Shown here: piece after piece, positions 4,548 through 60,642 of the stretch
How the letters are laid out: each line of letters opens with the position of its first letter
Position numbering within the stretch: position 1 is the first letter of the stretch
NCBI GenBank assembly: GCA_963727525.1
Contig: CAVSGO010000003.1
Coordinates: 160,001 to 224,000, forward strand
Length of the DNA: 64,000 bases
Source of the DNA: an uncultured bacterium
GTDB taxonomy: Bacteria > Krumholzibacteriota > Krumholzibacteriia > LZORAL124-64-63
Reading direction: 5' to 3'
Program-made: the position numbers and the translations under genes
The notes under the pieces: model-generated
What the model was told of the DNA's origin: nothing
What the model saw: only the letters and a program-made list of their open reading frames with translations
Database searches by the model: none

Positions 4548-4804
4548 CACGGCGGGTCCTTTCGAGGAGTGATTATGGCGAAGCGATAAAGCCACGAGAA
4601 ACGTCGATATACGATCACGAAATCCGACCGAGCGTTACACCATGTATGATGTGTGTCAAGCGGATTCGGATCGCCAGGAGTAGCATTTCGTGAAGCCCCA
4701 CATTTTATAGATTTTGCGGGACGAAATATGCCGGTCTCGTTCATTGGTAATGGTGCATGATGCTGTCTTACGGGACTCCGGTCCGAGGCCACGGAGGTGA
4801 TACG

Positions 4805-7273
4805 ATGCCCAGGCGCGTGCCAGGAGTGCGAAACGGATTCGTCATGGTCGGCGTCGGGATGCTCGCGATGGTGATGGTGGACCTTGTCGCCGGCGGCCGG
4901 ATCGACACCGCCCGGGCGAATTGTATCGACTACCTCGGCAACTCGGTCAACGTCGGCCGATTCGACACGCCCGGACACGCGCGCCGTGTCTCGATATCGG
5001 GTCACCTGGCATGTGTCGCGGACGAGGAGGGCGGTCTGCGCATCATCGACGTCGAGGATGACCGCATGGTCCGGTTCGTGGGCTACATGGTGTTCCCATC
5101 ACGGGTTCTCGATGTCTTTGCTCGCGGCGATATCGTGTATCTTGCCGACAGCCAGGACGGGATGCGCATCGTTGACATCAGCGATCCGGCGGCACCAAGC
5201 TTGGAGAAGTCGGTGTACGTCTCCGGTGAAGCGCGAGGCGTAATCGTCGTGAACGACCGCGCCTACGTCGCGGCGGGATCGCAGGGTTTGCGCATCGTGG
5301 ATGTCGCGGACATCGCACAGGCGGCGATGGTCGGCGGTATCGTGACGGCCGGGCCGGCCAACGATGTCGATGTCCGGGACTCGTTTGCCTATGTTGCGGC
5401 GGGAAACGCGGGACTGCTGATCGTCGATATCGGCGACGATACGGCGCCACGACTTGTCGCGACGGTCGCCGTCGGTGGCGTGGCGAATGCCGTGGCGATG
5501 CGCGAATCCGTGGCAATCGTCGCGGCCGGTGATGCTGGTGTCGCGATCGTCGATGTCGAGGATCCGGAACATCCGGTGCTGGTATACGTGGCCCACGTGG
5601 GGGGCGATGCACTGGACGTTGTCGTGACTGACGGGTACGCGGTGGTCGCCGACCTCGCGTCTGGAATCTTGGTCATCGATATCAGCGACCCTGGCTCGCC
5701 CGCGGTGGTGGGCGGTCTGGATCTTGCGGGTGACGCATCGGGCGTGGCGATAGGGGGACAGCGCGCCTATGTCGCGACCGGCGACGCCGGGCTCACGATC
5801 GTCGATCTCTCCGAGCCCACGGATCCCCGGCTACCGGAGACATTGTGGCTACCAGGTGACGCGCTCGGGATCGCCGTGGCCAGCAGATTCGGCTACGTCG
5901 CGAGCCGCTGGGCGGGCTTGCAGGTGGTTGCCTTCGTTGGTGACGGGGAGCTGCAGCGTACCGGGAACGTGGGTACCGTCGGAGAGGCCCAGAGTATCGT
6001 GCTCCAGGGTACGCTCGCCTACGTCACGCAGTCCTATTTCGGTCTGGTCGTCATCGATGTGGAGAATCCCGAAGACCCCGTGATCATGGGAAGCGTTGAT
6101 ACGCAGGGAGTTGCGCGCGGCCTCGCGGTCTCTGGCGGCTATGCATATATCGCCGACGGAGAGACGGGCCTGGCCGTGATCGATATCGCGAACGCGGCCG
6201 CGCCGCATGTCGTGGCGAATCTCATTCTGCCGGGCATCGCTCGCTCGGTCGTGGTCATGGGCGAGCGGGCTCTCGTCGGGAGCTCGGGGTATGGAATCCC
6301 GATCGTAGATATCTCGAATCCCCGTGTCCCCGTTCTCGCGGGATCGGTGCCGGTATACGGTTTCGCCACAGATATGGCCGCGGCGGGTGACTTCGTGGTC
6401 GGCGTCGGTACTTCCGGCCTCGCGGTCATCGACGTGGGCTCACGGGAGCAACCGACCCTGCTGGGACAGATCAATCTGCAGTCGAATCCACGGAGCGTCA
6501 CCGTACGCGCCGATCACGTGTACGTGGGGAGCGAACTGAGCGGTATGCAAGTCGTCGACATCGGTGATCCGACGACCCCCGTGCTCCTGGGCAGCCTGCA
6601 GACGGCCGAGGAAATCCTGGACGTGGGGCTGACCGACGAATGGGCATTGGTCGCGGGACCGACTGGGCTCGTCGCCGCGCCACTGCAGTGTGGTGACGAG
6701 ACGGCGACATATCTCGATTTCTTCACGTTGTCCCCGCAAGATGGCCAGATCGACATCTGTTGGCGGGTGGGTTTGGCGTACGGAACGCCCGAGTTTCAGC
6801 TCACGGGTACCTGCAGACACGAGTGCTGGAACGTACCATTCGCGGCCGACGGCACATACGGGGACTTCGCAGCGGTGGATCGTGTGGGTGCTTTGCACGA
6901 CGACGCGACGGTGACCTACGAACTTCGCGGCCGCGACAGCGCCACGGACTGGTCGGTTGTCGCTTCCGCGTCAGCGCGACCCGTGTCCTCGCGGCGCGCG
7001 AGCACAATCGTCGGCATCGCGCCCAATCCGTTCAATCCCGTCGCTACGATCAGTTTCGAGTGCGCGGCCGCGAGCGCCGTGAGGCTGACCATCCACGACC
7101 TCGCTGGTCGCTTGGTGGCATGTCTCGTCGACGGGCCCATGGCGCAGGGGCGCCACCAGCAATCATGGGATGGTCGGGATCGTGCGGGCCGCCCCGTGCC
7201 CGCGGCCATGTACGTGACGCGCCTCGTGACGGCCGATCGGGTGGTCAGCCGCACGCTCACCATCGTGAAGTAG
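4805..7273 (+). CDS. LVIVD-repeat secreted protein with FlgD-Ig/T9SS-like C-terminal domain
   Basis: About 14 repeats of AYVA....GL.IVD.SDP; C-terminal APNPFNP...WDGRD..G..V....Y...RTLTIVK; SD ggaggt before ATG 4805. Confidence 0.85.
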   Translation: MPRRVPGVRNGFVMVGVGMLAMVMVDLVAGGRIDTARANCIDYLGNSVNVGRFDTPGHARRVSISGHLACVADEEGGLRIIDVEDDRMVRFVGYMVFPSRVLDVFARGDIVYLADSQDGMRIVDISDPAAPSLEKSVYVSGEARGVIVVNDRAYVAAGSQGLRIVDVADIAQAAMVGGIVTAGPANDVDVRDSFAYVAAGNAGLLIVDIGDDTAPRLVATVAVGGVANAVAMRESVAIVAAGDAGVAIVDVEDPEHPVLVYVAHVGGDALDVVVTDGYAVVADLASGILVIDISDPGSPAVVGGLDLAGDASGVAIGGQRAYVATGDAGLTIVDLSEPTDPRLPETLWLPGDALGIAVASRFGYVASRWAGLQVVAFVGDGELQRTGNVGTVGEAQSIVLQGTLAYVTQSYFGLVVIDVENPEDPVIMGSVDTQGVARGLAVSGGYAYIADGETGLAVIDIANAAAPHVVANLILPGIARSVVVMGERALVGSSGYGIPIVDISNPRVPVLAGSVPVYGFATDMAAAGDFVVGVGTSGLAVIDVGSREQPTLLGQINLQSNPRSVTVRADHVYVGSELSGMQVVDIGDPTTPVLLGSLQTAEEILDVGLTDEWALVAGPTGLVAAPLQCGDETATYLDFFTLSPQDGQIDICWRVGLAYGTPEFQLTGTCRHECWNVPFAADGTYGDFAAVDRVGALHDDATVTYELRGRDSATDWSVVASASARPVSSRRASTIVGIAPNPFNPVATISFECAAASAVRLTIHDLAGRLVACLVDGPMAQGRHQQSWDGRDRAGRPVPAAMYVTRLVTADRVVSRTLTIVK

Positions 7274-7296: not shown

Positions 7297-7320
7297 CTAG
7301 CGGAACAACTAGCGGAACAA
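7297..7320. repeat. Perfect 12-bp tandem duplication (ctagcggaacaa x2) spanning the stop codon of the 7309-8205 gene
   Basis: Read directly: 7297-7308 is identical to 7309-7320. Confidence 0.9.
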
Positions 7321-8205
7321 CGACTTCACGTCGCTCCAGCTTGCGGTCTGCGTGCCGACCGGCAGGGCGGTCAGTGCGAGGTCCTGGAAGAGGAGCGTGT
7401 CGCCCTCGTAGTCGTGCATGTAGTCCGGACAGTCGGGGCAATCGACGACGGCGAAGGGGGTGGACTCCTCGTGCATCGCGACCGGCCCGACATCGGGCAC
7501 GTAGAAGACCTGGCCGCGGTACTCGCCGTGGATGCTCCCGAGCAACACGCCTTCCTCGGTGACAAAGTCCTGCCAGCCCAGGTCGACGAGGTAGTCCATC
7601 TGCACGGCGTCGGTGAAGGTGCTGACCGGCGTGGACACGGTCGCGTCGATGGCGGCGACGGTGCCGTGCAGGAAGATGTCGTCGGCGAACTCGGGTACGA
7701 GTTGCAGCACGAATGACGCGCCGACCGTGAGATCGCTCTCGACGTAGATCCAGGTGAGGTGGGAGAAATCGGGCTGCCACATCTCGATGTCGTCGGCAGT
7801 CTTCAGGAAGTAGCCACCGTGGAGGAAGTCGGGATTCCAGGATCTCTGGGGCCTGTTCTGCCCGTAACGCGCGACGATGGCCTCGCGAAGATCGGGCCGG
7901 CCCTGCCAGACCATCGCCAGGGGGAACGGGAGGTCCGGCGCGGTGGCGACCGCGGCCGGGATGTCACCGTGTTCGGCCAGCAGGACCTGGGCCGTGCCAC
8001 CCGGCGTGCCAATGGTGCCTTCGAGTGCGAGGAACGCGGACGTCGTGGCATCGACCGGCTCCGGGAAGACCTGGACGACGTGATAGTCGAACTCCCAGCG
8101 CGTCCCATCGGGATTCGGCCAGAGCGAGTCGAGGGTGGGCTGGGCCACCGCTGCGGCCGCGACGAGCACCGCGACCGAACAAAGGATGAATACGAAACGT
8201 CGCAT
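7309..8205 (-). CDS. Secreted hypothetical protein with C-terminal WSDVKSLFR tail
   Basis: Sec signal peptide (AVA-QP) with SD gaaagga. Ends ...ALPVGTQTASWSDVKSLFR. Confidence 0.8.
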   Translation of the reverse strand: MRRFVFILCSVAVLVAAAAVAQPTLDSLWPNPDGTRWEFDYHVVQVFPEPVDATTSAFLALEGTIGTPGGTAQVLLAEHGDIPAAVATAPDLPFPLAMVWQGRPDLREAIVARYGQNRPQRSWNPDFLHGGYFLKTADDIEMWQPDFSHLTWIYVESDLTVGASFVLQLVPEFADDIFLHGTVAAIDATVSTPVSTFTDAVQMDYLVDLGWQDFVTEEGVLLGSIHGEYRGQVFYVPDVGPVAMHEESTPFAVVDCPDCPDYMHDYEGDTLLFQDLALTALPVGTQTASWSDVKSLFR

Positions 8206-8375
8206 GCCGGTTCCTTTCTCGTGGCGATGGCACTGAAATTACATGATCAGTGTATCACATCCGCGACGTTTCGAACAAGGCGCCGGGGCAGCGCTCGGCG
8301 ACCGCATGTGCTACGTTTTGCCGCTGAAATCTCGCGACCCCGGGGTTGCGTCACCTCCGTCGAAGGGACCGCACC

Positions 8376-8756
8376 ATGTCCAAGCAAGCCATCGTCTCGC
8401 CCGACCTCGCGCCTCCGGTGGGGCCGTACTCCACGGCCGTGCGCGCCGGGGGATTCGTCTTCCTGAGCGGTCAGATCGGCCTGGATCCGGGTACGAGAAA
8501 GATCGTGGCCGGTGGGGTCGAGGCGCAGACGGAGCAGCTCTTCCGCAACATCCGCGCCGTACTCGAGGCCGCGGGGAAGACCATGGACGATGTCGTGCGC
8601 ACGTGCGTGTACCTCACGGACATGGCCGATTTCGGCACCATGAACGCGATCTATGCGCGACAGTTCAAGGAGCCCTTCCCGGCGCGCACGACGATCGCCG
8701 TGACAGCGTTGCCCATCGGGGCGACAGTGGAGATCGATCTCGTCGTGGAGGATTGA
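8376..8756 (+). CDS. ridA: RidA/YjgF family reactive-intermediate deaminase
   Basis: PPVGPYS, VFLSGQIG, MNAIYARQF...PARTTIAVTALP...VEID. Confidence 0.9.
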   Translation: MSKQAIVSPDLAPPVGPYSTAVRAGGFVFLSGQIGLDPGTRKIVAGGVEAQTEQLFRNIRAVLEAAGKTMDDVVRTCVYLTDMADFGTMNAIYARQFKEPFPARTTIAVTALPIGATVEIDLVVED

Positions 8757-8765
8757 GGTCGGGAT

Positions 8766-10028
8766 GGAATCGCAACAGTTCTGACGTGCCACGAAGAATG
8801 TTGACGGGTCCAGCGCTTGCCTGGGCCCGTCTTCATGAACACCAAAACCCTCACTTCATGCCCTACGCTTCCTCCCCACTGCCCCAACCCTAACTGCAAA
8901 TACCACAAGCCTCAGCCGCAACCCTGGCCCTTCGCGCTCTTCGGCACCTTCTCCCGAAAATCCCCACCCTACACCGTCCAACGCTACCTCTGCCTGGCCT
9001 GCGGCAGGACCTGCTCAGACCAGACCTTCCGCACCACATACTGGCTCAAACGCGCCGATCTCCTGCCCAAGGTCCACAAGCACGCCGTCTCAGGCGCCGC
9101 CAACCGCCAGATCGCCAGGCTCCTCGACACCTCGCCGACGACCGTCGACAACCTCCTCGCCCGCCTCGGCCGACACTGCATCCTCTTCCATCGACACCTG
9201 GTGTCCCGGGCGTCACCCTTCGTGGACATCGCCATCGACGGCCTCGTCACCTTCGAGCACTCCCAGTACTTCCCCTACGAGATCGTCACGGCCGTCGATC
9301 GCCCCTCCAGCTTCATCATCCACTTCGCCGAGGCCGAGCGGCGACGCAGCGGGGCGATGACCGACGAGCAGAAATGGAAACGGTCCCTCTTCGAACAAAA
9401 CTATGGACGGCCGGACCCCAGGTCGTTGATGCGGGCGCTGCTCGAGGTGCTCTCGGTCTCGCTCGACGGCGCCACCGAGGCCCACATCTGGAGCGACAAG
9501 CACAAGACCTATCCCTACGCGATCGCGAAGCTACGGTATTGCAAGGTGATCCACGAGACGATCGACTCCCGTCAGCCGCGGACGAGTCGCAACCCGTTGT
9601 TCGAGGTCAACTTGCTGGACATGTTGCTGCGGCATTGTCTGAAAGACCATACGCGGGAGACGATCGCGTTCGGGAAGCGACGGCAGCATTCGATCTACCG
9701 GCTGGCGATCTTCCTGGTGTGGCGCAACACGATCAAGTTGCGTCGGGAGAAGCGGTGCTGGAGCACGCCGGCGATGCAGATCGGGATCGCCACGAAGCCC
9801 CTGACCGAGGAGGAGGTGTTGTCGCGGCGGCTGTTCGTGTCGCATATCGAGTTGCCGCCGTTGTGGGATGACTACTACTGGCGACGGGTCGAGACGCGGC
9901 CATTGAAGGTGAACCGGAGGCACGTGCTGACGTACGCCGCGTAGTGAGTCTGTCAGGCGTGGCGGGGAGTGCCCGGGCTCAAGGCGCCAACAACATTCTT
10001 CTTGGCACAACCCAACGCTTGATTGGCC
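8766..10028 (+). mobile_element. Insertion sequence, IS1/IS1595-like
   Basis: Imperfect ~38-bp terminal IRs with an 18-bp core: gtgccacgaagaatgttg (8786-8803) vs caacattcttcttggcac (9991-10008), one mismatch. Single transposase ORF. No TSD seen. Confidence 0.75.
8835..9944 (+). CDS. IS1-family-like transposase (Zn finger, HTH, DDE-type core)
   Basis: CPNPNC...QRYLCLACGRT zinc ribbon; NRQIARLLDTSPTTV HTH; IAIDG, IWSDK, and TPAMQIGI motifs. Confidence 0.8.
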   Translation: MNTKTLTSCPTLPPHCPNPNCKYHKPQPQPWPFALFGTFSRKSPPYTVQRYLCLACGRTCSDQTFRTTYWLKRADLLPKVHKHAVSGAANRQIARLLDTSPTTVDNLLARLGRHCILFHRHLVSRASPFVDIAIDGLVTFEHSQYFPYEIVTAVDRPSSFIIHFAEAERRRSGAMTDEQKWKRSLFEQNYGRPDPRSLMRALLEVLSVSLDGATEAHIWSDKHKTYPYAIAKLRYCKVIHETIDSRQPRTSRNPLFEVNLLDMLLRHCLKDHTRETIAFGKRRQHSIYRLAIFLVWRNTIKLRREKRCWSTPAMQIGIATKPLTEEEVLSRRLFVSHIELPPLWDDYYWRRVETRPLKVNRRHVLTYAA

Positions 10029-10030
10029 GT

Positions 10031-10064
10031 TTCCTATCACCTCACGATTCCTATCACCTCACGA
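10031..10064. repeat. Perfect 17-bp tandem duplication (ttcctatcacctcacga x2) spanning the stop codon of the 10054-12276 gene
   Basis: Read directly: 10031-10047 is identical to 10048-10064. Confidence 0.9.
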
Positions 10065-12276
10065 GCACGAGCTTCGCCGTGGTCGCGCCGATGTCCGCGG
10101 TCACCTGTGCCAGGTAGACGCCGCTGCCGAGCGGCCGCCCGGCGTCGTCCGTCCCATCCCATTGCAGGATCCGCAGCCCCGCGGGCTCGACGGCGTCGAG
10201 CAGGGTCCGCACGTGGGCACCGCGCAGGTCGTGGATCGTGACGCGGGTCTGGCCGGCGCGCGGCAGGTCCAGGGACAGCGTGACGCGGGGATTGAAGGGA
10301 TTGGGAGCCACAGCGAGCGCGAGGGTTCGAATCGGCTGCGGCGCACCGTCGCCGGTCGCCGTGGCGATGTCCGGAAGTTCGGAGAGCGGGCGCGACCAGT
10401 AGCCGTGGCCGCGCGAACCGGCATAGAGGTTCGTGGCGTCGGACGCGAAGCAGTAGACCTCGCCGCCGGCGTAGCCGTCGTCGAATGGTGTCCAGTCCAT
10501 GCCGTCGAGGCTGGTGGAGACGCGGTTGCTGGAATCGGCGGCCACGAGCACGCTGCCCACGATGTGCAGGGCGTTCACGAACGTGGAGGGCAGGCCGACG
10601 CGCTCCCAGAGCGTGCCCGTCCAGCGGTAGATGCCGTCGCCCTGGGTGGCGGCGAGGACCTCGCCGTCGAAGACCGCGAGATCGTTGATGTACAGCGTCA
10701 GGTCGTTCAGCCCATCGCTGATGGGCGTGAAGCTGGCGCCGCCGTCTGTGGAGATGGCGGCACCGAACCCATACTGGCCTGCGAAGATGTCGTTGCCGCG
10801 CGAGGCGAGGGCCGACACGCGCTGGATGCCCGATACCGGCGTCCACTGGACGCCGCCGTCGTCGGAGCGGTAGAGGTCGTCCCAGGTGCCGGCGAAGAGA
10901 ACGCCGTCGTGCTCGTGCATACAGAGCACGATGTCGTTGCTCGCGATGCCGTTCGTGGCGGCGACGAAGCTGACACCATCGTCGTCGGAACGGTACACGC
11001 CGCGCGGGATGCCGTAGAGGCCTGCGAAGATGGAGTTGTGGTAAGGTAGCAACGCCACGGCCGTGGTGGAGGTGGCGATGCCGGTCGACCGGGTCCACGT
11101 GGCGCCCTGATCGGCGGAATACCAGATGGCGCGGCCGGTGCCGGCAGTCGCCTCGACGCCGGCAACCAGGTTGGCGCCCGCCACGAGCATGGCCTCGCTG
11201 CCGATGATACCCGACGCGCCGCTCCAGCTCGCCTGCCACGACGCACCGCCGTTGGACGAGCGGTGCACGGCACCGACCGTGCCCACGAGGATGTCGCCGC
11301 CCACCACGGCGGCGGCCGTGATCCGATCGAGCACCGGCAGCGTGGCGGTGATGTGCTGCCAGGTCTGACCGCCGTCGGTGGATGTGAAAAGGCCCGGCGT
11401 ACCGAAGTTGCCGTCGAGCGCGAGATAGTACGTGCCGCCGTCCGCCAGGAACGCGGTGGCGTCGACCTGCGAGGTCGTGGGCAGGTTCGTGCTGTGCAGC
11501 GTCCAGGTCAGGCCCGCGTCGAGCGACCGGTACACGCCTGAGAACGTGAAGCCGCTGCGGACCGCGGCGTAGATGGTCGTGCCGTCGACCAGGAGGCGGT
11601 CGACACGCGGTGTCGCAGGCAGGCCCGTGGTGATCGGCGCCCACGTGGCGCCGGCATCGGGCGAGCGGTAGAGCCCCGCGTCGGTGCCGGCGAGCACGAC
11701 GTCCACGAGGCTGGCAAGGTCGGAGCACGTCATGGCCGGGCAGCCGGGAATCGGTGCCCAGTGATCGCCGCCGTCGGTGCTGGCCGAAAGCGGTGACGGA
11801 CCGAAGTTGTCGAACCCGATGATGAGGTGGGAGGCGGAAATGTCGACCATGGCCGAGATGCTCGCGCTGGCCGACAGCCCCTGCGTCAACGCCTCCCACG
11901 ACGCGCCCCCGTCGGTGGTGCGGTGCAATCCCGAGAGATACCCACCGGCGAATACGGCCGCCGCGGTGCGCCGGATCACGAGGATGCCGCCGTTGGGCAG
12001 CCGCGTGTTGCTCCAGACCTGTCCGCCGTCGTCGGACACGTAGACATCGCCCGCGTCGGCTTCGTTGGTCCCCAGGAAAACCAGTCCCCCGTCGCTCGCA
12101 AGCACGCTGGACGCGGGCCCGATGGGTCCCGTGACCTGTTGCCACTCCGCGCGTGCGGACGCCACCCACACCGCGGTGAGCAGACCCGCAGCAATTACGA
12201 GGATCAGGTGATGCAGACCCGAATCGAGCAATGGACGACGGGACATGGGTGGCCTCCCGAGGGCAGGGGCGAACAT
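10054..12276 (-). CDS. BNR/Asp-box beta-propeller secreted protein with FlgD-Ig/T9SS-like C-terminal domain
   Basis: Many S.DGG.TW repeats and a signal peptide (ARA-EW). C-terminus APNPFNP...WDGTDDAG...SGVY...AKLVLVR. Start may be 12246. Confidence 0.85.
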   Translation of the reverse strand: MFAPALGRPPMSRRPLLDSGLHHLILVIAAGLLTAVWVASARAEWQQVTGPIGPASSVLASDGGLVFLGTNEADAGDVYVSDDGGQVWSNTRLPNGGILVIRRTAAAVFAGGYLSGLHRTTDGGASWEALTQGLSASASISAMVDISASHLIIGFDNFGPSPLSASTDGGDHWAPIPGCPAMTCSDLASLVDVVLAGTDAGLYRSPDAGATWAPITTGLPATPRVDRLLVDGTTIYAAVRSGFTFSGVYRSLDAGLTWTLHSTNLPTTSQVDATAFLADGGTYYLALDGNFGTPGLFTSTDGGQTWQHITATLPVLDRITAAAVVGGDILVGTVGAVHRSSNGGASWQASWSGASGIIGSEAMLVAGANLVAGVEATAGTGRAIWYSADQGATWTRSTGIATSTTAVALLPYHNSIFAGLYGIPRGVYRSDDDGVSFVAATNGIASNDIVLCMHEHDGVLFAGTWDDLYRSDDGGVQWTPVSGIQRVSALASRGNDIFAGQYGFGAAISTDGGASFTPISDGLNDLTLYINDLAVFDGEVLAATQGDGIYRWTGTLWERVGLPSTFVNALHIVGSVLVAADSSNRVSTSLDGMDWTPFDDGYAGGEVYCFASDATNLYAGSRGHGYWSRPLSELPDIATATGDGAPQPIRTLALAVAPNPFNPRVTLSLDLPRAGQTRVTIHDLRGAHVRTLLDAVEPAGLRILQWDGTDDAGRPLGSGVYLAQVTADIGATTAKLVLVR

Positions 12277-12350
12277 GCGCTTTCGAAATACGAGTGAAAC
12301 AATCTTACCTCGGGTCGGGGCCGGTGTCCAGGGGGTCGGCGTAACAGGGG

Positions 12351-13440
12351 TCAGCGCAAGAGTATGACCTTGGCCACCGTTCGATCATCGCCCGCCGCCG
12401 CCCGGGCGAAGTAGACACCACTCGCGAGCGCTCGCCCCGCGCAGGTCGTGAATCGTCACGCGCACGTGTCCGGCGCGAGGCAGTGCCAGTGACAGAGTGA
12501 CGCGGGGATTGAAGGGGTTGGGTGCGGCGGTGAGCGCGAGCCCGAGCGCGTCGGGAACGCCGCCCTCGATGGAGCCGCCGAGATCCTCGCCGAACGCCGC
12601 GAGCACATCGTGGATCAGCGCCGAGCGCACGCGGTACCCGAGTTCGGTGAGCAATGCGTGCGCACCACCGGACTCGAGCAGGACGCCGTAGCCGGCCAGC
12701 GTCGCCGCCGCCGCGCGACTGCCAGGGCCGTCGCCGATATCGGCGGCGGGCGTGGTCGTCACGAAGAGGTCATGGTCAGACTACCCCTCGGCGAGCGAGA
12801 ACCTCCACTCGGCACCTGTATCGGTACGGTCGCTAGGCATGACCACCGTTTCGCCGGGCGGTGCCGGTGGCCTCGAAGTAGTAATGCACAACGTCACCGG
12901 GAAAGAGCAGGCTGGAGTCGGGCAAATCGAAGGCGTCGCGGCCGGCGACCGACGTCAGGAATCTCGCCACCTCGCCGGTGATGATGGCCTTCACCTGCGT
13001 GACGCCGGCCGGCAGCACCCACACACCGTCGAACAAGGGGTTGGCGCGGATGCGGACGGCCATTCGCGGCGGACAATCGAGCGTGGTGCCGGCACCAGTG
13101 GCGTGGGAAGCGATCGCGAAGATACTCGGGACCGCCAGAGTCGACCAGGCCGAAGCTGCGCCACGGGCCCGCCGACAGGGTGGCGGGATCGTCACTGGAG
13201 TTCGACCGGACGAACCACTCGGAGGAGATCTCCGCCAGGCTCTGGGTGCGAGGGTTGTGCACGAACACGTCGTACTTCAACTCGAGCGCGTCGCAACGCC
13301 CTGGCCACGGGAGAGCCAGCGCCGCCATCGCGCCGACCATGCTCCTGGCGGAGGCGGGCGTGGAGTACACCTTCCTCTGTTCATCGACGAATATCCCCGT
13401 GGAACCGTCCATCCGGAGTCTCGGCTCGATCAGGCTCACG
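12351..13440 (-). pseudogene. Decayed large FlgD-tailed secreted protein (fragments in several frames)
   Basis: Fragments FDLPDSSLLFPGDVVHYYFEAT, LTELGY...LIHDVLAAFG and APNPFNPRVTLSLALPRAGHVRVTIHDLRG, followed by an out-of-frame jump to RALASGVYFAR...AKVILLR*. The 5' boundary is uncertain. Confidence 0.65.
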
Positions 13441-13574
13441 TGCCCGAGCGCGGGTTACGTCATCCTGATGGCAAAGGCCGACGGCGTGGCGTCCGGCGAC
13501 AACACCACGTTCTGGATCGGGTCGAGCACATCCACGATCGGCAAGCCGGGGCTGGATGCACGCCCGCCTCGATA

Positions 13575-14499
13575 TCACCGCACGAGCATCATCCGCTGCG
13601 TCTGTAGGATCTCGCCCGACCGCAGCCGTGCGAAGTAAGCGCCCGACGGCATCGCGCGGCCGGTGTCGTTGGCGCCATCCCAGACGATGTCGTGCGCGCC
13701 GGCGGGAACGATGTCGTCGCGCACGAGCGTACATACGCCACGTCCCGCGCAATCGAAGACCGTCAGCGAAACGGCCATCGGTGCGGCCAGCGTATAGTGC
13801 GATGTCGTGCGCGGGTTGAACGGGTTGGGAGTGCAAGGTCGCAGCGAGACCGGTGCCGGCGCAACGGGCGCGTCGAATACTGGCACGAGGCCTAACAAGG
13901 AGTAAGCGTCGGCCACGCCGCCCGTATCGGCATCGATGTCCACCTCGATGATCATGCCCACGCCACGCAGGTACCACTCGATGCCGGTCACGGCGCCGGG
14001 GGCGGTGTCATACCCGGCGCCAGATTCGACGCCATCACGACGTTGTGGAGGTTGGGAGCATAATCCGGGTCGTAGCTGGCGATGGCGACCATGTCGTCAT
14101 ACACACGCGGACCATAGACGTATCGCAAGGCGTGCAGAAGCAGACGCCGAACTTCGCGCCGACGACCACCTCGACCAGCACGATGCTCTTGTCGAGATCG
14201 TGGACGATGCCAGCCTCGGCCTCGGCGTACACGGTGATCACGCCGCCGTCACGATGGATGACGGTGTAGTTGGCGACGTCCTCGCCGAGCTTGAACGCAG
14301 GATGACCCTCGTACGTGAATTCCTCGAAGACCGAGTTTACCCAGGTGTCGCCGGGGATATCGACATTCTCGTACGTCCAGGTCGCGCCGAGAACGAGCGG
14401 GAAATACCAGCCGAACATGTCGGCGGCGAGGGCCGGCGCGGCCGTGGCGAAACAGAGTACGAGGCAAAACAGGGTGATCCGGGGCGGTGGGCGAAGCAT
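13575..14499 (-). pseudogene. Frameshifted secreted protein with FlgD-Ig/T9SS-like tail
   Basis: SD aaggag, signal peptide (ALA-AD) and YFPLVLGATWTY. Frame changes near 14103 and 13998 lead to EWYLRGVG...PNPFNP...QRMMLVR*. Confidence 0.7.
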
Positions 14500-14510
14500 G
14501 ATGGTCTCCT

Positions 14511-14600
14511 TCATCGCACGAGTACGAACCGCGCCGTCGCCGTGACGTCGCCGGCTTGCAACCGGGCCAGGTAGAGTCCCGCCGCCACGGCGCGGTCATG
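14511..14600 (-). pseudogene. Isolated 3' remnant of another FlgD-tailed gene
   Basis: DRAVAAGLYLARLQAGDVTATARFVLVR*, with no PNPFNP half upstream. Confidence 0.6.
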
Positions 14601-15132
14601 GTCGTCACGCACGATGCCCCGAAATCCGGCTGTCCGGTGGTGGAGGTGGCGGCGGCGTTCAGGAAGCAAGAATCGGTATGGACCGTCGGGACGACGGCAC
14701 GCAGCAGACTTGCGAACAGGCGCGTGGCGCGAATGATCAAACCCCCGAGAATGCGTGATCAGGTGTCGACTGTACACCGAGGCCGCCTCACGTCACAAGC
14801 GGCCCGGCGAATGTCGACGGTTCCATGCGTTGCCTGGATCCGCCTCTAGCCACGACCCGCGCCCGGGAAACCCGAATCTACCGCTCTGAGCTCGGTGCCG
14901 GTGACCGTGATACTAGAGAAATGTCATATATCCATGCCGGCGTCATGGATGCGGGAGACAGCGAGTGGCGAGGTGCCATGAATAGCTGCGAGAAAGCATA
15001 TTCAGGAATACTTCTCGAGCTTGCCGCACCTAATGGTACGTAAACATAGGACGTGCGAGGCGTACCCACCGGGTGTATCGTAATGAACTCAGAGGATGTT
15101 GAACTTCTCGGTGGGAGACGGGGAGAATCGCG

Positions 15133-30067: not shown

Positions 30068-32980
30068 CTACTTCAGCAGCACCATCGCGCGCGTCTCCAC
30101 GTGTCCGGCGGCTTCGAGCCGGTACAGGTAGACGCCCGAGGCTACCACCGATCCGTGTTCGTCCTGGCCACGCCAGACCGCGAGGTGCGCGCCGGCGGCG
30201 ACCGGACCATCGATCAGGCTCGCGACGCGACGGCCGTGCAGGTCGTACACCGCGAGGCGGACATGGCCGGCAGCGCCCACGGCGAAGCGGATCGTGGTGG
30301 ACGGATTGAACGGGTTCGGAGCGTTCTGGGCGAGCACGAGCGGGGCGTCGAGGAGAGGCACGTCCACTGATTGGTCCAGGGTCGCGGTGATCGGGGCGTT
30401 GTCGACATCGCGTGCGATGAGCAGCGTATCGGTGAATGCCACGGCCTCCGAGAGGGTGACGCGCATCAGCTCGCCGGCGCCCGCGATGCCCGCACCGCCG
30501 CCGAGCATCACGAGCGATACGTCGAGGCGGTCGGGCTGCGTGTTGCGCAGGACGTATGGCGACGTCTGGCTGCCCAGCAGCGCGCCCGAGATCACGCTGG
30601 CCGTCACGCCGTTGGGCAGCGTGAAGCCGAAGCGTAGGCCCTTGAGATGGGGCGCGGCCGCCTGCAGTTCCAGGGCCCAGACCGTCGTGTCGACGTGACG
30701 CCAGGCGAGCAGCACGTCGCCGCCCTGAGGCGGCGGTGGCACGGGATCGCCGTAGTTGAGGCCCGCGATCATCACGTCCTCGAAGTCCACCGCGCCATCG
30801 GTGAGGGGGATGCCGTGCCCCGAGGCATCATCCGTCGGACCGAAATCGGCAATGGCGTTGAATACGGTGTCGTCGCGGGTGGTGCCGAACGCCGAGACGA
30901 GCGCGGCGATGTCCAGGGTGTCGACGATGCCGTCCAGCGGGTCGGCGATGTCGCCGAGCTGGTAGTTCGTCGCGCGGGGAGCCTCGGTGGTGCGGGCGCT
31001 CCAGTTGCCCAGCGCATCCCGTGCGAAGGCCTCGTAGGAGTAGACGCCGCGTACGGCGAGCGAGTCGACGTAGGTGCCGTCGGCCGCCGGGAGCGTGGTG
31101 ACGAGGGTCCACGTGGTGTCGGCCACGATCGCGGCATGGTCGGCCGGCCGTACCGGCGGATTGCTGCCGGGCGCGTCGTCGTACAGCGGATAAGCGGAAT
31201 TGCCGTTGCCGTCGCGCCACAGTCCGCGCCAGAGTTCGATCGCCTCGGCATCGTCGGGCACGCCATCATAAGCCACCGTGATGGCGTCGACGCCCGGCGC
31301 CGCCGTCAAGGCGGCGATGGCGTCGGGTGGCAGCACACCCATGACGTCGATGGTGACCAGAGCGGTGTTGCTCACGGCGCCGCCATCGTCGGACACGGTG
31401 TAGGAGAGCGAGTCGTCGCCTGCGAAGCCAGTGGCCGGGGTGTAGGTGATCGCGCCGGAGAGCGTGTCGACGGCAGCGGTGCCGTGCAGCGGCTCGATGA
31501 CTATGGTCACCGAGGCGGGTACGAGCACGCCAACGGCGTCGCTGTCATTGGCGAGCACGTCGATGACCACGGGGACACCGCCGGGCGTGCTGGCCGTATC
31601 TGGCAACGCGATCGGGGCCACGGCGTCGACGCTGTAGAGATAGAACTTCCCGGCATCGAGGTGCAGGGCGGTGTCGTACAGATTGGCCCCCGTGAGGAAA
31701 TCGTCGCGGCCGTCGCCGTTCTGGTCGTCGACGATGGCGGTGTTCGAGCCGAAGCGGTCGGAATCGTGCTCGCCGGTCAGGATGACGTCGGCAAGAGTGT
31801 CGGCCATGGCGGTGCCGGGCGGGTCGCCGCCGAAGAAGACGAAGGTGCGGCCGGGGCCGAAGCCGCCGGTGTCGGGCGTGGGCGCGCCGATCACCAGGTC
31901 ATCGCGGCCGTCGCCGTTGAGGTCGCCGGCGCCGGAAACCGCGCGGCCGAAGATGCCGCGGTACGTGGTGCCTGTGTAGACGAGATCGGGCAGGCCATCG
32001 GCACCCGGTCCACCGAAGTAGACGTCGGCGCGGCCGGCATCGAACCCGCCGGAGTCGTTGTGCATGTCGCCGATGATCACGTCGGCGAATCCATCGCCAT
32101 TCACGTCGCCGGCCGGCGCGACACAGTATCCGAAACGGTCGCTGCCGGAGTCGCCGGTGAAGATCAGGTCCGCGACACCGTCGAAGTCCGGCCCACCAGA
32201 AAAGAGGTAGGCCTGCGTCAGCGTGTTGCCGCCGACGAGCACGTCGGGCCAGCCGTCGCCATCGAAGTCGCCGGCCGCGCTGACGGACCATCCGAGAAAG
32301 CCGTTCTCCGGTACGGAAAGGGTGACGTCTACGGAATCGTCGAGCGCCGTGCCACCGAACACCACGTACGCGCGCCCATCGGCCGAGGTGCCCGCCGGCG
32401 CCCCGATGACGAGATCGTCGCCACCACCGTTGATATCACCCGGCCCGGCCACCGACCAGCCGAAGTACGCGAACGGAGCGGGGCCGGTGATCACCAGATC
32501 CGGCACGTCATCGATCGTCGGGCCGCCGAAATACACGTACACGCGGCCGGCATTGAGTCCGCCCGCATCAAACTTCGGCGCACCGACGACGATGTCATTC
32601 CAGCCGTCGCCGTCCACGTCGCCACACCCGCGAACCGAGGTTCCGAAGGCGTCGCCGGCAAACTCGCCGCTCAGCACGAGGTCGGGCGTATCGTCGTGGC
32701 CGGGGCCTCCGAAGTAGACCCAGGCCTGGCCCGCGCTCACGCCGCTGTGCCGTGCGCCAGGCGCACCCACGACGAAGTCGCCGACGCCGTCGCCATTGAC
32801 GTCACCCGCGGCGCTGAGAAAGAGTCCCAGCCCGGCGCTGTCGTTCTGTCCCGTGGCCGACAGGATCTCGGTGACCGGCACCGCGCTCGCCGTCATCGCC
32901 AGGACGCCGATGGCGACACCCAGGAACGACGCCGAAGCGATGCGACCACACGTATGCAGTCGCGTGATATGGCTCACCAT
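30068..32980 (-). CDS. FG-GAP repeat protein with Ig-like, dockerin-like and FlgD-Ig/T9SS-like domains
   Basis: About 7 repeats of FG.SV...GD.NGDG..D..VGAP; IDVLAND Ig-like; C-terminus QNAPNPFNP...RAMVLLK. Confidence 0.88.
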   Translation of the reverse strand: MVSHITRLHTCGRIASASFLGVAIGVLAMTASAVPVTEILSATGQNDSAGLGLFLSAAGDVNGDGVGDFVVGAPGARHSGVSAGQAWVYFGGPGHDDTPDLVLSGEFAGDAFGTSVRGCGDVDGDGWNDIVVGAPKFDAGGLNAGRVYVYFGGPTIDDVPDLVITGPAPFAYFGWSVAGPGDINGGGDDLVIGAPAGTSADGRAYVVFGGTALDDSVDVTLSVPENGFLGWSVSAAGDFDGDGWPDVLVGGNTLTQAYLFSGGPDFDGVADLIFTGDSGSDRFGYCVAPAGDVNGDGFADVIIGDMHNDSGGFDAGRADVYFGGPGADGLPDLVYTGTTYRGIFGRAVSGAGDLNGDGRDDLVIGAPTPDTGGFGPGRTFVFFGGDPPGTAMADTLADVILTGEHDSDRFGSNTAIVDDQNGDGRDDFLTGANLYDTALHLDAGKFYLYSVDAVAPIALPDTASTPGGVPVVIDVLANDSDAVGVLVPASVTIVIEPLHGTAAVDTLSGAITYTPATGFAGDDSLSYTVSDDGGAVSNTALVTIDVMGVLPPDAIAALTAAPGVDAITVAYDGVPDDAEAIELWRGLWRDGNGNSAYPLYDDAPGSNPPVRPADHAAIVADTTWTLVTTLPAADGTYVDSLAVRGVYSYEAFARDALGNWSARTTEAPRATNYQLGDIADPLDGIVDTLDIAALVSAFGTTRDDTVFNAIADFGPTDDASGHGIPLTDGAVDFEDVMIAGLNYGDPVPPPPQGGDVLLAWRHVDTTVWALELQAAAPHLKGLRFGFTLPNGVTASVISGALLGSQTSPYVLRNTQPDRLDVSLVMLGGGAGIAGAGELMRVTLSEAVAFTDTLLIARDVDNAPITATLDQSVDVPLLDAPLVLAQNAPNPFNPSTTIRFAVGAAGHVRLAVYDLHGRRVASLIDGPVAAGAHLAVWRGQDEHGSVVASGVYLYRLEAAGHVETRAMVLLK

Positions 32981-35852: not shown

Positions 35853-37235
35853 TCAGCGCACGAGTTGCATGACGCGCGACTCCGCGTGATCACCCGCACG
35901 CAATCGGGAGATGTACGTACCCGAGGCGAGGGCGCGGCCGCGGTCGTCCTGGCCTTGCCACGTCACCGCGTGGTGGCCCGCGGCGGTCTCGCCGTGGGCG
36001 AGCACCGTCACCCGATGGCCGCCGAGGTCGAAGATGCTGAGATCGATCGCCATCGCCTCGGGAAGATCGAAAGCGATCGTGGTCATGGGATTGAACGGAT
36101 TCGGCGCATTCTGGGCGAGCCGCGGTGTCTCCGCCGGCGTGTCCTGCACCGGCGTGACCGTACAGCCCTGGCCCTGGGCTCCCATCTGCACCAGACAGTC
36201 GTTGTTCAGCGGCAGGCAGGGCGACTCCCCGGCCAGACCGACATCGCCGCCGGCCAGGTCGCAGAACAGGGGGTCCGCGTCGATGTTGCCTGCCACCCCC
36301 GTCTGGTCGCCGATGTAGCCCGTGTACCCGCCACCGTCGTTGCCATGGACGTCGCTGCAACGCACCGTGATGTCGGTGCCCGTGTCGTTCACGTCGATGC
36401 CGCCGCTGCCGTGATTGAAGGCGACGACGCACATCTCGACCGTGGATACCGAACCGGCGCCGAACATGATCCCCGCGCCGATGTCGGCGCGGTTGCCGGC
36501 GATCGTGCAGTGGACAATGGGATTGTCGATGCCACCGAGGCAGAACACGCCGCCTCCGAAGTACTGCCCCTCGTTGTTCAATATCTCGCAGAAGTTCACG
36601 GCGATCGAGGATTCGTAGAGGTACAGACCGGCGCCGTCGTCGGCACGGTTGTTCATGATCCGTGAGCTGAAGATCTCGCCACTGGTGGCGTAGGCATACA
36701 TGCCGCCCGCTCCGCCGGCGCCGCCCTCGTTGTCGGTGACGCCGGAGACGTAGAGCGTCAGGTCGGACGCATGTGCGTAGACGCCGCCGCCGCGGTAACC
36801 GGCGACGTTGCCGGTGATCGTGCACCCCAGCAAGGTCAGTACCGCGTTCTCGCAGAAGACGCCACCCCCGAGACCGGTAACGCCCGGGACGAAACCGCCG
36901 GTCATGGTGACGCCCTGGACGCTGGCGGACTGGGTCAGGTTCTCGGCGGTGAACACGCGCCCTTGCTGGTCGGCGTCGATGGTGACGCACGTGGCGACAC
37001 CGAGCTCGCTGCGCACCGCGACGCCGCCTTTCAGCATGAGGTCGTGCTCGTGGTACGTGCCGCAGGCCAGGACCACCTGGTCGCCGGCGCTTGCGGAATC
37101 GAGGGCGGCGGCGATGGTGGCCACCTCGGCCGGCACATGCCACGTGCGGGCCGTGGCGGCACCCGCGGCCGTGATGATCACGGCACAAGCGATTGTCGAA
37201 ATTATGAAAAGAGTTGGATGACCGGGGCGATGCAT
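35853..37235 (-). CDS. Right-handed beta-helix (pectin-lyase/Pmp-like) secreted protein with FlgD-Ig/T9SS-like domain
   Basis: TIAAALDSA..GD.V.L..GTY, GGG.Y/N.A repeats, DADPLFC, QNAPNPFNP...RVMQLVR; SD aaggag. Confidence 0.85.
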   Translation of the reverse strand: MHRPGHPTLFIISTIACAVIITAAGAATARTWHVPAEVATIAAALDSASAGDQVVLACGTYHEHDLMLKGGVAVRSELGVATCVTIDADQQGRVFTAENLTQSASVQGVTMTGGFVPGVTGLGGGVFCENAVLTLLGCTITGNVAGYRGGGVYAHASDLTLYVSGVTDNEGGAGGAGGMYAYATSGEIFSSRIMNNRADDGAGLYLYESSIAVNFCEILNNEGQYFGGGVFCLGGIDNPIVHCTIAGNRADIGAGIMFGAGSVSTVEMCVVAFNHGSGGIDVNDTGTDITVRCSDVHGNDGGGYTGYIGDQTGVAGNIDADPLFCDLAGGDVGLAGESPCLPLNNDCLVQMGAQGQGCTVTPVQDTPAETPRLAQNAPNPFNPMTTIAFDLPEAMAIDLSIFDLGGHRVTVLAHGETAAGHHAVTWQGQDDRGRALASGTYISRLRAGDHAESRVMQLVR

Positions 37236-37401
37236 GGCGGTCTCCTTCCTGGATTGCGGGAGGGGCGACCCCGATCCTATCACATCCCGGGGCGAAGCGT
37301 GGCCAATTGGTGTTCGCGCGCGCATTGCGGCCTTGTTTTCATTGCGAGGGATCGCGCGTCAAGCTGCTATATTGCTGCCTCACGAAAGGCGGCGGCAGTC
37401 G

Positions 37402-46099: not shown

Positions 46100-46263
46100 G
46101 CCCGCGCCTTCGCCGCGAAGTTCTTGGTTCATGGCGCGTCCGGGTGTCTTGAATATATAAAATCATCGACCCGTCTCCACCCGCCTGTCACACGATGCGC
46201 CGCGATTCGTACCGACTCATGCTACCGGTGTCCGGACCACACCTTGGCAATGGAGGTCAATTC

Positions 46264-59137: not shown

Positions 59138-60642
59138 ATGACGCCCGACCTTTCCGGACTCGGCGCGACCACGGGACTCCTGCCCGAGTTCGTGCTCGCG
59201 GCCACGATCCTGGTGCTCGTCGTGCTCGACGTGGCGCTGCGGCGGCACGCGCAGCGGCACACCGCGCTGCTCGTGGCCACGATGCTCGGCCTCGCGGCCT
59301 CGGCGCTGTCGATCCTGGCCGTGCCCATCGGGCCGCAGCCGCTGTTCTACGGCATGGTGGTGGCCGACAGCTTCGCCGTCTTCATCATGGGCCTGGTGAC
59401 GATCGCCGCCCTGGTGGGCACGGTGTTCGCGGCGTTGTCGCCGGAGATCCGTCGCAATCAATACGGCGAGTACCTCATCCTCATCCTCTGCCTGACGATG
59501 GGCATGGGCTTGCTCGCGGCGTCGAAGAACCTGCTGATGATCTACCTGTCGCTCGAGCTGGTGTCGCTGCCGTCGTACATCCTCGCCGGCTTCCGGCGCG
59601 GCGACCATCGCTCCAGCGAGGCGGCCCTGAAGTACGTGATCTTCGGCGCAGCGGCCTCGGGCTTCATGCTCTACGGCTTCTCACTGCTCTACGGCATGGC
59701 CGGCACCCTCGACCTCGACGGCATTGGCCGCACCGTGGTCGAGGGGCACGCAGCGGTGGCCTCCCCTCGCACTTCGTGGTGGTGGTGGCCGTGCTGCTCT
59801 CCCTGGCCGGCTTCGCCTACAAGGTGGCGGCGGTGCCCTTCCACATGTGGTGCCCCGATGTGTACGAGGGCGCGCCCACGCCGTTCGTGGCCTTCCTCTC
59901 GGTGGCTCCCAAGGCTGCCGGCTTCGCCGCCCTGCTGCGCTTCGTCCTGATGGGCTTCGGCGCGTCGACCGGCTTTGCCGCGGCGAACGAGTTCCCGTGG
60001 CCGCTCGTGCTCGGCATGCTGTCCATCGCCACGATGACGGTGGGCAACTTCGCGGCCGTCACCCAGACCAACGTCAAGCGCATGCTCGCCTATTCGAGCA
60101 TCGCTCACGCCGGCTACATGCTCATGGCCGCCGCCGTGGGCAGCCCGCTGGCGATCAAGGGTATCCTGATCTACCTGCCCATCTACCTGCTGATGAACAT
60201 GGGTGCTTTCTTCGTCGTCATGGTCGTGCGCGAACGCACGGGTTCCGAGACGGTGGACGCCTTCCGCGGTCTGGGGCAACGCTCGCCGTACCTGGCCGTC
60301 GTGATGGCCGTGTTCCTGTTCTCGCTCACCGGCCTGCCGCCATTTGCGGGCTTCATCGGCAAGTTCTTCCTCTTCGCCGCCGCCCTGCAGACCGGCAGCG
60401 TGTTCTTCTACGCCGTGGCCATCATCGGCGTGCTGAACTCCGTGGTGTCGCTCTACTACTACGCCCGCATCGTGCGCGCCTGCTTCCTCGAGAAGGCGGA
60501 GGAAGGCCACGACGGCGTCGTCCTGGTGGCGGCTCCGGCCACCGCCATCCTCGGCGTCCTCGCCCTGCCCACCCTCCTGCTAGGCATCTGGTGGGGTCCC
60601 CTGCTAGGCGTGGTGGAGAAGGCGGTGCTGCTGGCGCGGTAG
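59138..60642 (+). CDS. nuoN: Complex I subunit N, split by a single frameshift near 59741-59748
   Basis: N-half (ELVSLPSY, SEAALKY) lies in the 59138 frame. C-half (KVAAVPFHMWCPDVYEGAPTP, KRMLAYSS) lies in the -1 frame. Confidence 0.9.

Follow-up and report, generated by a model that had tools for sequence, protein, structure and literature searches.

A short C-terminal tail shared by unrelated exported proteins of uncultured bacteria as a candidate sorting or anchoring tag

Introduction

LPXTG, PEP-CTERM and the C-terminal domain (CTD) of type IX secretion system (T9SS) cargo each led to a dedicated machine and to the sequence-based prediction of surface proteomes. Here we describe another C-terminal element, a tail of about 17 residues that closes a 298-residue exported protein encoded in 64,000 nucleotides of contig CAVSGO010000003.1 (assembly GCA_963727525.1, positions 160,001 to 224,000, forward strand), from an uncultured bacterium of the Krumholzibacteriota. 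This whole stretch is referred to below as the window. The tail is almost certainly a real, modular and conserved C-terminal element: its motif recurs at or near the end of unrelated passengers, goes with signal peptides, is distributed in the Fibrobacteres-Chlorobi-Bacteroidetes (FCB) group, is exchanged with a FlgD-type CTD and excludes the lipobox.

Among the small C-terminal sorting signals, the tripartite class carries a transmembrane helix followed by 2-5 basic residues, and the "choice of anchor" is attribute 8 in the list compiled by Haft, according to the available text of that work (10.1101/2023.06.07.544157). In Bacteroidetes, a lipoprotein export signal (LES; SDDDD, SDDFE or K-(D/E)2) drives the surface exposure of lipoproteins, and in the available text of the paper it is demonstrated only there (PMC5080379).

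Results

A conserved tail ends the 298-residue protein

The open reading frame (ORF) of the 298-residue protein is intact, and the coordinates and sequences quoted in the initial annotation are correct. The features of the gene are the following.

7309..8205, minus strand: gene for the 298-residue exported protein carrying the short tail; intact ORF, stop codon at 7309-7311
8143..8205, minus strand: predicted signal peptide, residues 1-21, MRRFVFILCSVAVLVAAAAVA, followed by QPTLDSLWPN (read from the sequence)
7312..7362, minus strand: C-terminal tag P282-R298, PVGTQTASWSDVKSLFR, made of a Pro/Thr linker and the core motif
7312..7338, minus strand: core motif W290-R298, WSDVKSLFR

The N-terminus, MRRFVFILCSVAVLVAAAAVA followed by QP, reads as a typical type-I signal peptide with a putative cleavage site at this junction, and AlphaFold2 models the region as a helix (residues 2-20). 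The protein ends in ALPVGTQTASWSDVKSLFR directly before the stop codon (longer stretch, LTALPVGTQTASWSDVKSLFR), and its WSDVKSLFR is a W-S variant of the pattern W-G-x-[VI]-K-x-[LM]-[YF]-R. When the 847 stop-to-stop frames of at least 40 residues in the window were searched with W-x2-[VILM]-K-x(1-3)-h-[FYW]-[RK], the 298-residue protein was the sole carrier of the motif, terminal or internal. A tail profile (alignment A4, 71 rows, the window tail itself among them) scores 25.7 bits on this protein vs 4.4 bits on the next best frame of the window.

A word-index search found 58 homologues of about 300 residues in metagenome-assembled genomes (MAGs) labelled "bacterium" or Gemmatimonadota, and an exhaustive search found 310 representatives at E ≤1e-3. 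In an alignment of 55 sequences, which leaves out three fragments among the 58, K294 never varies, and at least 90% of the sequences agree at W290 and L278; the N-terminal consensus of the family is ...A.AQPTLDSLWPN. The tail is present in strict form in 47 of the 58 homologues and in loose form in nine more, and among all 201 retrieved proteins the ends comprise 78 strict tails, 16 loose tails and four matches to the FlgD CTD. Tails mostly end in Arg, while some relatives end in ...KARY, ...KARW or ...KARF.

The AlphaFold2 model of the protein (mean predicted local distance difference test, pLDDT, 92.7) is an open beta half-barrel with two helices. The tail is modelled as coil 284-289 and helix 290-296, at a block pLDDT of 69-71 vs 95-98 in the preceding blocks. 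No Pfam or NCBIfam family and no CTD model matches the protein. The best Foldseek match of the passenger is 3fzx (E 2.7e-5, TM-score 0.32/0.42), followed by LolA-superfamily entries; other matches include 4fvs (E 1.5e-4) and 3buu (LolA superfamily, E 1.5e-3). The best matches are thus YmcC-like and LolA-superfamily proteins, with TM-scores of just 0.24-0.42 overall. The resemblance of the passenger to a LolA/YmcC-like half-barrel that binds lipids or hydrophobic ligands is only a lead, drawn from the model. Tail-bearing passengers are half-barrels or other soluble folds, and the combination that marks the beta-signal of outer membrane proteins, a closed beta-barrel with a terminal aromatic residue, was not found in them. 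A search of the ESM Atlas with residues 272-298 gave no usable match.

The tag has a shared anatomy across families

Across families, the tag spans about 17 residues, P-[VT]-[PSA]-[TVA]-x3-[ST]-W-G-x-[VI]-K-x-[LM]-[YF]-R, and stands at the end of the protein or a few residues from it; up to about ten extra residues are tolerated downstream of the motif. The 71 tails of alignment A4 all have W, K and R, and at least 90% of them have G; these positions are partly fixed by the pattern used in the genome scan described below, but the conservation of K294 and W290 in the homology-derived alignment above is independent of it. A logo for the positions outside this pattern was computed from 125 distinct 28-residue ends of the matches listed by the scan. 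Upstream of the core it has P at -17 (33%), V or T at -16 (44 and 27%), P, S or A at -15 (45, 20 and 18%), T, V or A at -14 and E or R at -13, and within the core V or I at -6, A or S at -4 and L or M at -3. The window tail, with P-17, V-16 and then W-9, S-8, V-6, K-5, L-3, F-2 and R-1, fits this cross-family logo, Ser replacing Gly. Further upstream, 61 of the 125 tails have at least one Cys between -28 and -11, frequently in the context C-x(2-4)-P-[VT], and such a residue might form a disulfide that closes the passenger.

Constraint on the tag is also seen in a small family resembling fibronectin type III (FN3) domains from Ignavibacteria-type genomes (alignment A3). The tail is kept in 120 of 120 listed homologues, 114 of which have the identical 12-mer KRTWGSIKALFR (net charge +4), though overall identity drops to 52%. 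The model of the FN3-like protein is a confident beta-sandwich followed by coil and then by a helix at residues 118-128 (pLDDT about 66). Because the 12-mer is conserved and the models place a helix at the terminus, the tail appears to lie outside the passenger folds and to be under stronger constraint than the folds themselves.

These FN3-like exported proteins have 130-150 residues and are encoded at L044:10004-10393 and in loci L002, L011, L030, L034, L047, L049, L050, L054, L059, L064, L071 and L077. The FN3-like gene is followed by maf in eight of 12 loci, matE lies nearby in five, and 408 homologues were found.

The motif recurs in unrelated proteins of FCB lineages

The initial annotation pointed to similar endings in candidate FCB genomes. 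We scanned 185,579 species genomes, one per species (596 Gb), with the DNA pattern WCN TGG GGN NNN NTN AAR NNN NTN TWY CGN TRR, which encodes [ST]WG-x-h-K-x-h-[YF]-R and a stop codon, h being a codon with a middle T. At least 124 stretches match, whereas chance alone would give 15-69 in the entire collection, according to the G+C content assumed. For the 80 listed loci with flanks (L001-L080), hosts were tallied manually from the record titles, and 44 of the 80 are named as FCB lineages, in agreement with the initial annotation.

FCB hosts among the listed loci: Eisenbacteria 21, Fibrobacteraceae 6, Bacteroidota/Bacteroidia 3, Krumholzibacteria 2, Latescibacteria 2, Zixibacteria 1, KSB1 1
Ignavibacteria-type hosts, 8 listed loci: Melioribacter(aceae) 4, Kapaibacterium 3, Ignavibacteria 1
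Other host labels among the listed loci: Planctomycetota 1, Polyangiaceae 1, Alphaproteobacteria 1, Lachnospiraceae 2, "bacterium" 31

Nearly all named hosts of the listed matches are FCB lineages. The two Lachnospiraceae matches were discarded as chance, their ORFs having just six residues; apart from this pair, nearly every listed match closes a long ORF.

The listed matches yield 131 distinct tail proteins, of which 77 are full-length within loci L001-L080. With their last 20 residues removed, these 77 bearers fall into 41 BLAST clusters, none of which contains the window protein, so that the motif extends well beyond the one family to which it might have been confined. Of these passengers, 19 have a match in Pfam or NCBIfam, and 58 are without a Pfam family. 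The recognised ones include beta-helix/NosD/pectate-lyase-like proteins, the lamin-tail domain (LTD), DNRLRE, CBM4_9 and CBM96, as well as DUF7901, DUF7451, DUF4114, NHL/SGL and ThuA. Among the relatives of the 298-residue protein and of the FN3-like protein, the bearers that a source record names are all "hypothetical protein", save one "uncharacterized membrane protein" from the Joint Genome Institute.

Some loci hold several bearers. Four tandem tail-bearing paralogues of 252-290 residues lie within about 4.2 kb at L038:7898-11124 (minus strand), and L080 has five bearers in 20 kb, three beta-helix-like genes of 443-450 residues and two others. Greedy gene calling missed many bearers in GC-rich loci, and per-locus counts were therefore taken from direct motif scans. 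The recurrent neighbours of bearers are ABC ATPases, Maf, MatE, regulators and sigma genes. Conserved neighbours were considered as candidate machinery and rejected, as they amount only to the Maf/MatE synteny in Ignavibacteria and to generic ABC, regulator and sigma genes.

The motif is C-terminal and accompanies signal peptides

The position of the motif was assessed in 1.21 Mb of flanking sequence, in frames of at least 80 residues, with the seed matches excluded to avoid circularity. WG-h-K-x-x-[YFW] has 18 matches in these flanks, of which 13 lie at most five residues from the end of the protein, three lie 6-15 residues from it and two lie deeper, i.e. 16 of the 18 are within 15 residues of the C-terminus. 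One of the two deeper matches precedes sequence that looks like read-through, and the other is in a tandem fusion that also has a terminal tail. Window-like W-[SAT] variants add four matches, three of them terminal, and as controls the reversed motif has no match and the scrambled motif one. At the DNA level, six of seven non-seed matches are within four codons of a stop.

The tandem fusion is a protein of 413 residues (L019:10004-11242, minus strand) with two copies of the motif, a terminal one and an internal one (…AQWGALKAMFR) that lies 189 residues from the end. It looks like two tandem tail-bearing paralogues fused through the loss of a stop codon.

Co-occurrence with signal peptides, another point raised by the initial annotation, was examined with a strict rule of our own, a heuristic by which 37 of 58 tail genes are positive vs 107 of 889 other ORFs from the same loci (odds ratio 12.9, p 1.8e-18).

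The tail alternates with a FlgD-type CTD and with a lipobox

The proposal that the tail can be swapped with the FlgD/T9SS-like CTD was borne out within the family of the 298-residue protein. Homologues P0059 (390 residues), P0071 and P0102 have the same passenger as far as the conserved L-[ST]-x-x-P, beyond which a linker leads into a FlgD-type CTD at the position of the tail. Likewise, a cluster of PD40 propellers in the flanks has one tail-bearing member and two with CTD-like ends. A phmmer search with the CTD of a frameshifted window gene (13575..14514, described below) identified 26 flank genes that end in a CTD, spread over 18 of the 78 tail-bearing loci; none of the 26 has the tail. In alignment A2, MAFFT split the short tail across the FlgD CTD, so that its Trp fell on the conserved W-D-G and its S-L-F-R on the S-L-I-R that ends the CTD. 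This superposition may be a coincidence or a hint that the tail mimics both ends of the CTD.

A second alternation involves lipoproteins. The N-terminus is intact in 153 homologues, of which 71 have only the tail, 70 only a lipobox, two both and ten neither. In the two proteins with both, the Cys lies inside the signal peptide, and the CTD form P0059 is among the ten with neither. Tail and lipobox are mutually exclusive within the family, and the tail-less distant relatives (within P0089-P0201) are lipoproteins by their lipobox. The lipobox Cys is followed by two or more acidic residues (CDDD, CSDDE, CNDDD and similar) in 50 of these 70 lipoproteins. This acidic run resembles the LES pattern in the available text of PMC5080379, and suggests that a Bacteroidetes-type surface-export signal may also operate in these uncultured lineages. 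The tail/lipobox pattern fits attribute 8 in Haft's list, as far as the available text gives it (10.1101/2023.06.07.544157).

CTD proteins and a frameshifted gene in the window

The window itself has at least five intact FlgD-tailed proteins, encoded at 4757-7273, 10054-12276, 30068-32980, 35853-37325 and 46195-48960, together with a frameshifted gene and CTD fragments. Those near the tail gene, and a second frameshifted gene, are listed here.

4757..7273, plus strand: LVIVD-repeat (choice-of-anchor B-like) exported protein with FlgD-type CTD; PF08309 E 2.8e-86, PF13860 E 1.8e-7
10054..12276, minus strand: BNR/sortilin-like exported protein, intact, with FlgD-type CTD; PF02012, PF15902, PF13860 E 4.6e-9
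12385-12762 and 14511-14777, minus strand: CTD fragments
13575..14514, minus strand: frameshifted gene with signal peptide, unassigned passenger and FlgD-type CTD, in a three-frame reading
13578..13859, minus strand: FlgD Ig-like/T9SS-type CTD of the frameshifted gene, ...PCTPNPFNPRTT...RMMLVR before the stop; PF13860 E 1.5e-6
59138-60639, plus strand: nuoN split by a frameshift; 59138-59947 covers positions 1-73 of Proton_antipo_M, and 59776-60639, in another frame, positions 82-289

The gene at 4757-7273 is convergent with the tail gene; TIGR04312 (choice_anch_B) matches its product with E 1.5e-21, below the cut-off. TIGR04183 scores 26.8 bits on the product of 10054-12276, above its cut-off of 23. 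As the latter is an intact CTD protein, both tags coexist in the host genome.

The initial annotation regarded the gene at 13575-14499 as decayed and as carrying a passenger related to that of the 298-residue protein. The reading frame is split: protein-like sequence follows frame 0 as far as about 14130, switches to frame 2 until about 14000 and continues in frame 1 up to the stop. The apparent decay may be an assembly error, since nuoN, a core respiratory gene, is likewise frameshifted; the indel errors that its broken frame suggests therefore weaken pseudogene readings elsewhere in the window. The CTD of the gene is preceded by LLGLVPVFDAPVAPAPVSLRPCTPNPFNP, and TIGR04183 matches it with E 2.5e-4, below the cut-off.

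The relationship of the two passengers was not upheld. The two short likenesses quoted for them are present in the sequence but are not statistically significant. BLASTP of the frameshifted gene against the 298-residue protein gave best E values of 14 and 24, and hhalign of the family profile with the two pieces of the gene gave probabilities of 8.3% (38 columns, comprising the signal peptide and the start motif) and 0.1%; direct kinship was rejected on these results. Searches for longer relatives of the first piece found none, which is weak evidence. An indirect chain from the gene to the 298-residue family runs weakly through L058 and P0101. The tail-bearing protein of L058 (Fibrobacteraceae, 248 residues) starts with YFPLTPGLLWNYE, like the frameshifted gene (E 0.002), and hhalign aligns it to the family profile at 96.9%, but in hmmsearch nothing beyond the first 40 positions and the tail contributes to the score, and this bridge was rejected as proof. 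A remote common origin of the two passengers is possible.

The CTD remnants adjoin an ORF at 8817-9944 (plus strand) with HTH_38 and weak IS1/ISL3 transposase matches. Positions 12434-12540 are 82% identical over 107 nucleotides to the CTD of the BNR gene at 10217-10323, and the fragment at 14511-14777 (minus strand) ends in ...GLYLARLQAGDVTATARFVLVR, which resembles the last CTD strands.

Discussion

A role for the tail

That the tail acts as a modular sorting or anchoring tag with a dedicated partner is, in our judgement, about an even chance. FCB bacteria attach the tag by a short Pro/Thr linker to many unrelated Sec-exported proteins. After export by Sec, a conserved envelope component would recognise the tail, probably a helix of two to three turns outside the passenger fold, and this partner would retain or anchor the passenger, or route it to the outer membrane or cell surface. 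The tail would be a third option, beside an N-terminal lipid anchor with an LES-like acidic motif and the FlgD/T9SS-type CTD; as it alternates with these two devices, its probable destination is the outer membrane or the cell surface. Somewhat more tentatively, we propose a further FCB sorting pathway. Its label would be a helix of 10-17 residues at the C-terminus, …[ST]WGx[VI]Kx[LM][YF]R, devoid of a transmembrane segment or a folded domain, read by an envelope factor, possibly cleaved or modified at the invariant Gly or Lys, and present on many exported proteins per genome, alongside CTDs and surface lipoproteins.

Several points weigh against a sorting or anchoring tag with its own partner. 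The functional side, i.e. the sorting or anchoring role, the destination, the dedicated partner and any cleavage or modification, is one that we infer entirely from patterns in the sequences. No cognate machinery was found among the neighbours of bearers, in the window or in 30 flank proteins, and no gene recurs beside bearers of differing passenger families. T9SS components were not seen in the window; nor did any appear among 30 flank proteins scanned from a set of 45 large or barrel-like ones, a tiny and uninformative sample. The window has a single tail bearer in its 64 kb. The tail helix is predicted with moderate confidence (pLDDT about 70 and about 66 in two unrelated passengers), and amphipathicity was rejected as a property of it: the helical hydrophobic moment is 0.49 vs 0.36 (standard deviation 0.17) for shuffled tails, a value reached by 24% of the shuffles, and strand periodicity behaves likewise.

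Other points concern the statistics and the sampling. The signal-peptide rule is home-made, and a lenient version of it called 440 of the 889 controls positive, gave no discrimination and was replaced by the strict rule. The p-value for the tail/lipobox split overstates independence, because the split largely follows two clades of one family. The listed matches, at least 124, stand in unknown order, all their hosts are MAGs and the lineage labels are taken from record titles. Finally, the tail lacks two of Haft's attributes in the available text of the list, 4 and 5, as both a hydrophobic transmembrane segment and an Arg cluster are missing from it (10.1101/2023.06.07.544157), and T9SS CTDs are all much longer, even the "short" ones in the available text of PMC11969387.

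Alternative explanations

The C-terminal anchors of PBP5/6 and the targeting helix of MinD offer analogues for a simpler explanation, in which the tail is a direct membrane anchor, a cationic, aromatic interfacial helix that would stick the protein to a leaflet or to lipopolysaccharide without recognition machinery. A terminal helix after a flexible linker is indeed predicted in two unrelated proteins, and the tail is rich in Trp, Tyr/Phe, Lys and Arg, with a net charge of +4 in KRTWGSIKALFR; no conserved partner gene lies near the bearers, and the mutual exclusion with a lipid anchor fits anchoring. However, the hydrophobic moment does not exceed the level of shuffled tails, just about nine residues are available, and in a plain amphipathic helix one would hardly expect position 2 to be an invariant Gly. 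Across phyla and 41 clusters, W, G and K are near-invariant, whereas physico-chemical anchors are usually less tightly conserved. On balance, we consider a direct anchor unlikely.

A docking or regulatory peptide, i.e. a degron, a handle for a protease or chaperone, a site of covalent modification on the invariant Lys or an adaptor to a surface scaffold, would also account for the invariance of this Lys and for the basic residue that closes the motif, and it agrees with the failure to find sorting machinery among the bearer neighbours and the flank proteins scanned. Braun's lipoprotein, whose C-terminal Lys is linked to peptidoglycan, is a precedent for such a modification. Such a peptide would not require a free carboxylate at a fixed distance, since about ten extra residues are tolerated past the motif. 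The complementarity with a lipid anchor and a CTD within one family points instead to a topogenic role rather than to turnover, and the passengers are typical surface or extracellular modules. We rate this explanation as rather improbable, though it merges in part with that of a sorting or anchoring tag, because a covalent link to the wall would be a form of anchoring.

The tail might alternatively be an extremely reduced type IX signal, bound by PorV/SprA and removed by PorU, so that its bearers would be ordinary T9SS cargo. Its distribution matches the FCB group, in which T9SS occurs, as the available text of PMC12398890 has it; proteins with FlgD CTDs coexist with it, both in the window and in the flanks, and the tail replaces the CTD in homologues. 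The MAFFT superposition of the two, and the conserved basic residue of CTD motif E in the available text of PMC11969387, would fit as well. Yet known CTDs are folded Ig-like sandwiches, in which motifs B, D and E persist even in the "short" forms, according to the available text of the same paper, and the sandwich architecture is described as essential in that of PMC11285876. The tail has 17 residues predicted to be helical, and neither Por_Secre_tail nor FlgD_ig matches any of the 78 bearers, i.e. the 298-residue protein and the 77 others; in the MAFFT alignment, one Trp and a hydrophobic-basic end make up the whole overlap. A minimal type IX signal is hence improbable, and more so than the docking peptide.

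A family-specific structural element or a chance likeness, for which one could cite the lone bearer in the window, is excluded by the 41 unrelated clusters, the C-terminal position outside the predicted folds and the near absence of matches to the reversed and scrambled motifs.

Significance

The tail marks, for annotation, a large unannotated set of exported proteins in mostly uncultured phyla (Eisenbacteria, Latescibacteria, Zixibacteria, KSB1, Ignavibacteria and Fibrobacteraceae), among them polysaccharide-active beta-helix, CBM and nuclease-like modules. A tail profile of about 25 bits is adequate for a usable annotation model, and with per-genome tail counts and whole genomes the search for a partner becomes one of phylogenetic profiling.

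No model of Pfam-A (2025) or NCBIfam 20.0 covers the tail in any of the 78 bearers; given the 25.7 bits that the tail profile reaches on the window protein, any existing model would be expected to have shown up. A search of PDB sequences with the tail profile found no chain at E up to 10. Full-text literature searches with motif spellings, exact tails and topic words, which did not extend to subscription journals and supplements, found no description of the motif, and no cognate enzyme is known for the tail.

Comparison with known systems

Like the PBP5/6 and MinD anchors, the tail is a short, aromatic and basic terminal helix, as predicted, outside the fold. These anchors are weakly conserved in sequence, whereas W, G and K of the tail are invariant across phyla and its moment does not exceed that of shuffles.

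With the LES, the tail has in common that it is a short, linear, superphylum-specific signal and an alternative device on the same passenger family. In the available text of PMC5080379 the LES is N-terminal, acidic and dependent on lipidation, whereas the tail is C-terminal, basic and aromatic, and is found on non-lipoproteins.

The type A CTD of T9SS (TIGR04183, PF18962 and PF13860) is likewise C-terminal, is carried by unrelated Sec-exported passengers of the FCB group, occurs in the same genomes and stands at the same junction in homologues of the 298-residue protein. It differs in being a 5- or 7-stranded sandwich of about 60-100 residues, as against about 17 residues with a predicted helix. 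The three profiles match neighbouring window genes but neither the 298-residue protein nor the 77 other bearers, and motifs B, D and E, as given in the available text of PMC11969387, are absent from the tail.

The tripartite signals (LPXTG, PEP-CTERM, GlyGly-CTERM and MYXO-CTERM) share with the tail a near-invariant motif near the C-terminus, several copies per genome, N-terminal signal peptides, unrelated passengers and homologues with another signal. In the tail, eight residues follow the Trp, Lys included, and a single terminal Arg closes the motif. Since it has neither a transmembrane segment nor an Arg cluster, an intramembrane sortase-type enzyme is unlikely to act on it. The tail nevertheless has six of the eight attributes in the available text of Haft's list (1, 2, 3, 6, 7 and 8), among them a C-terminal location with at least three near-invariant residues, as seen in the 16 of 18 additional flank matches close to the end (10.1101/2023.06.07.544157).

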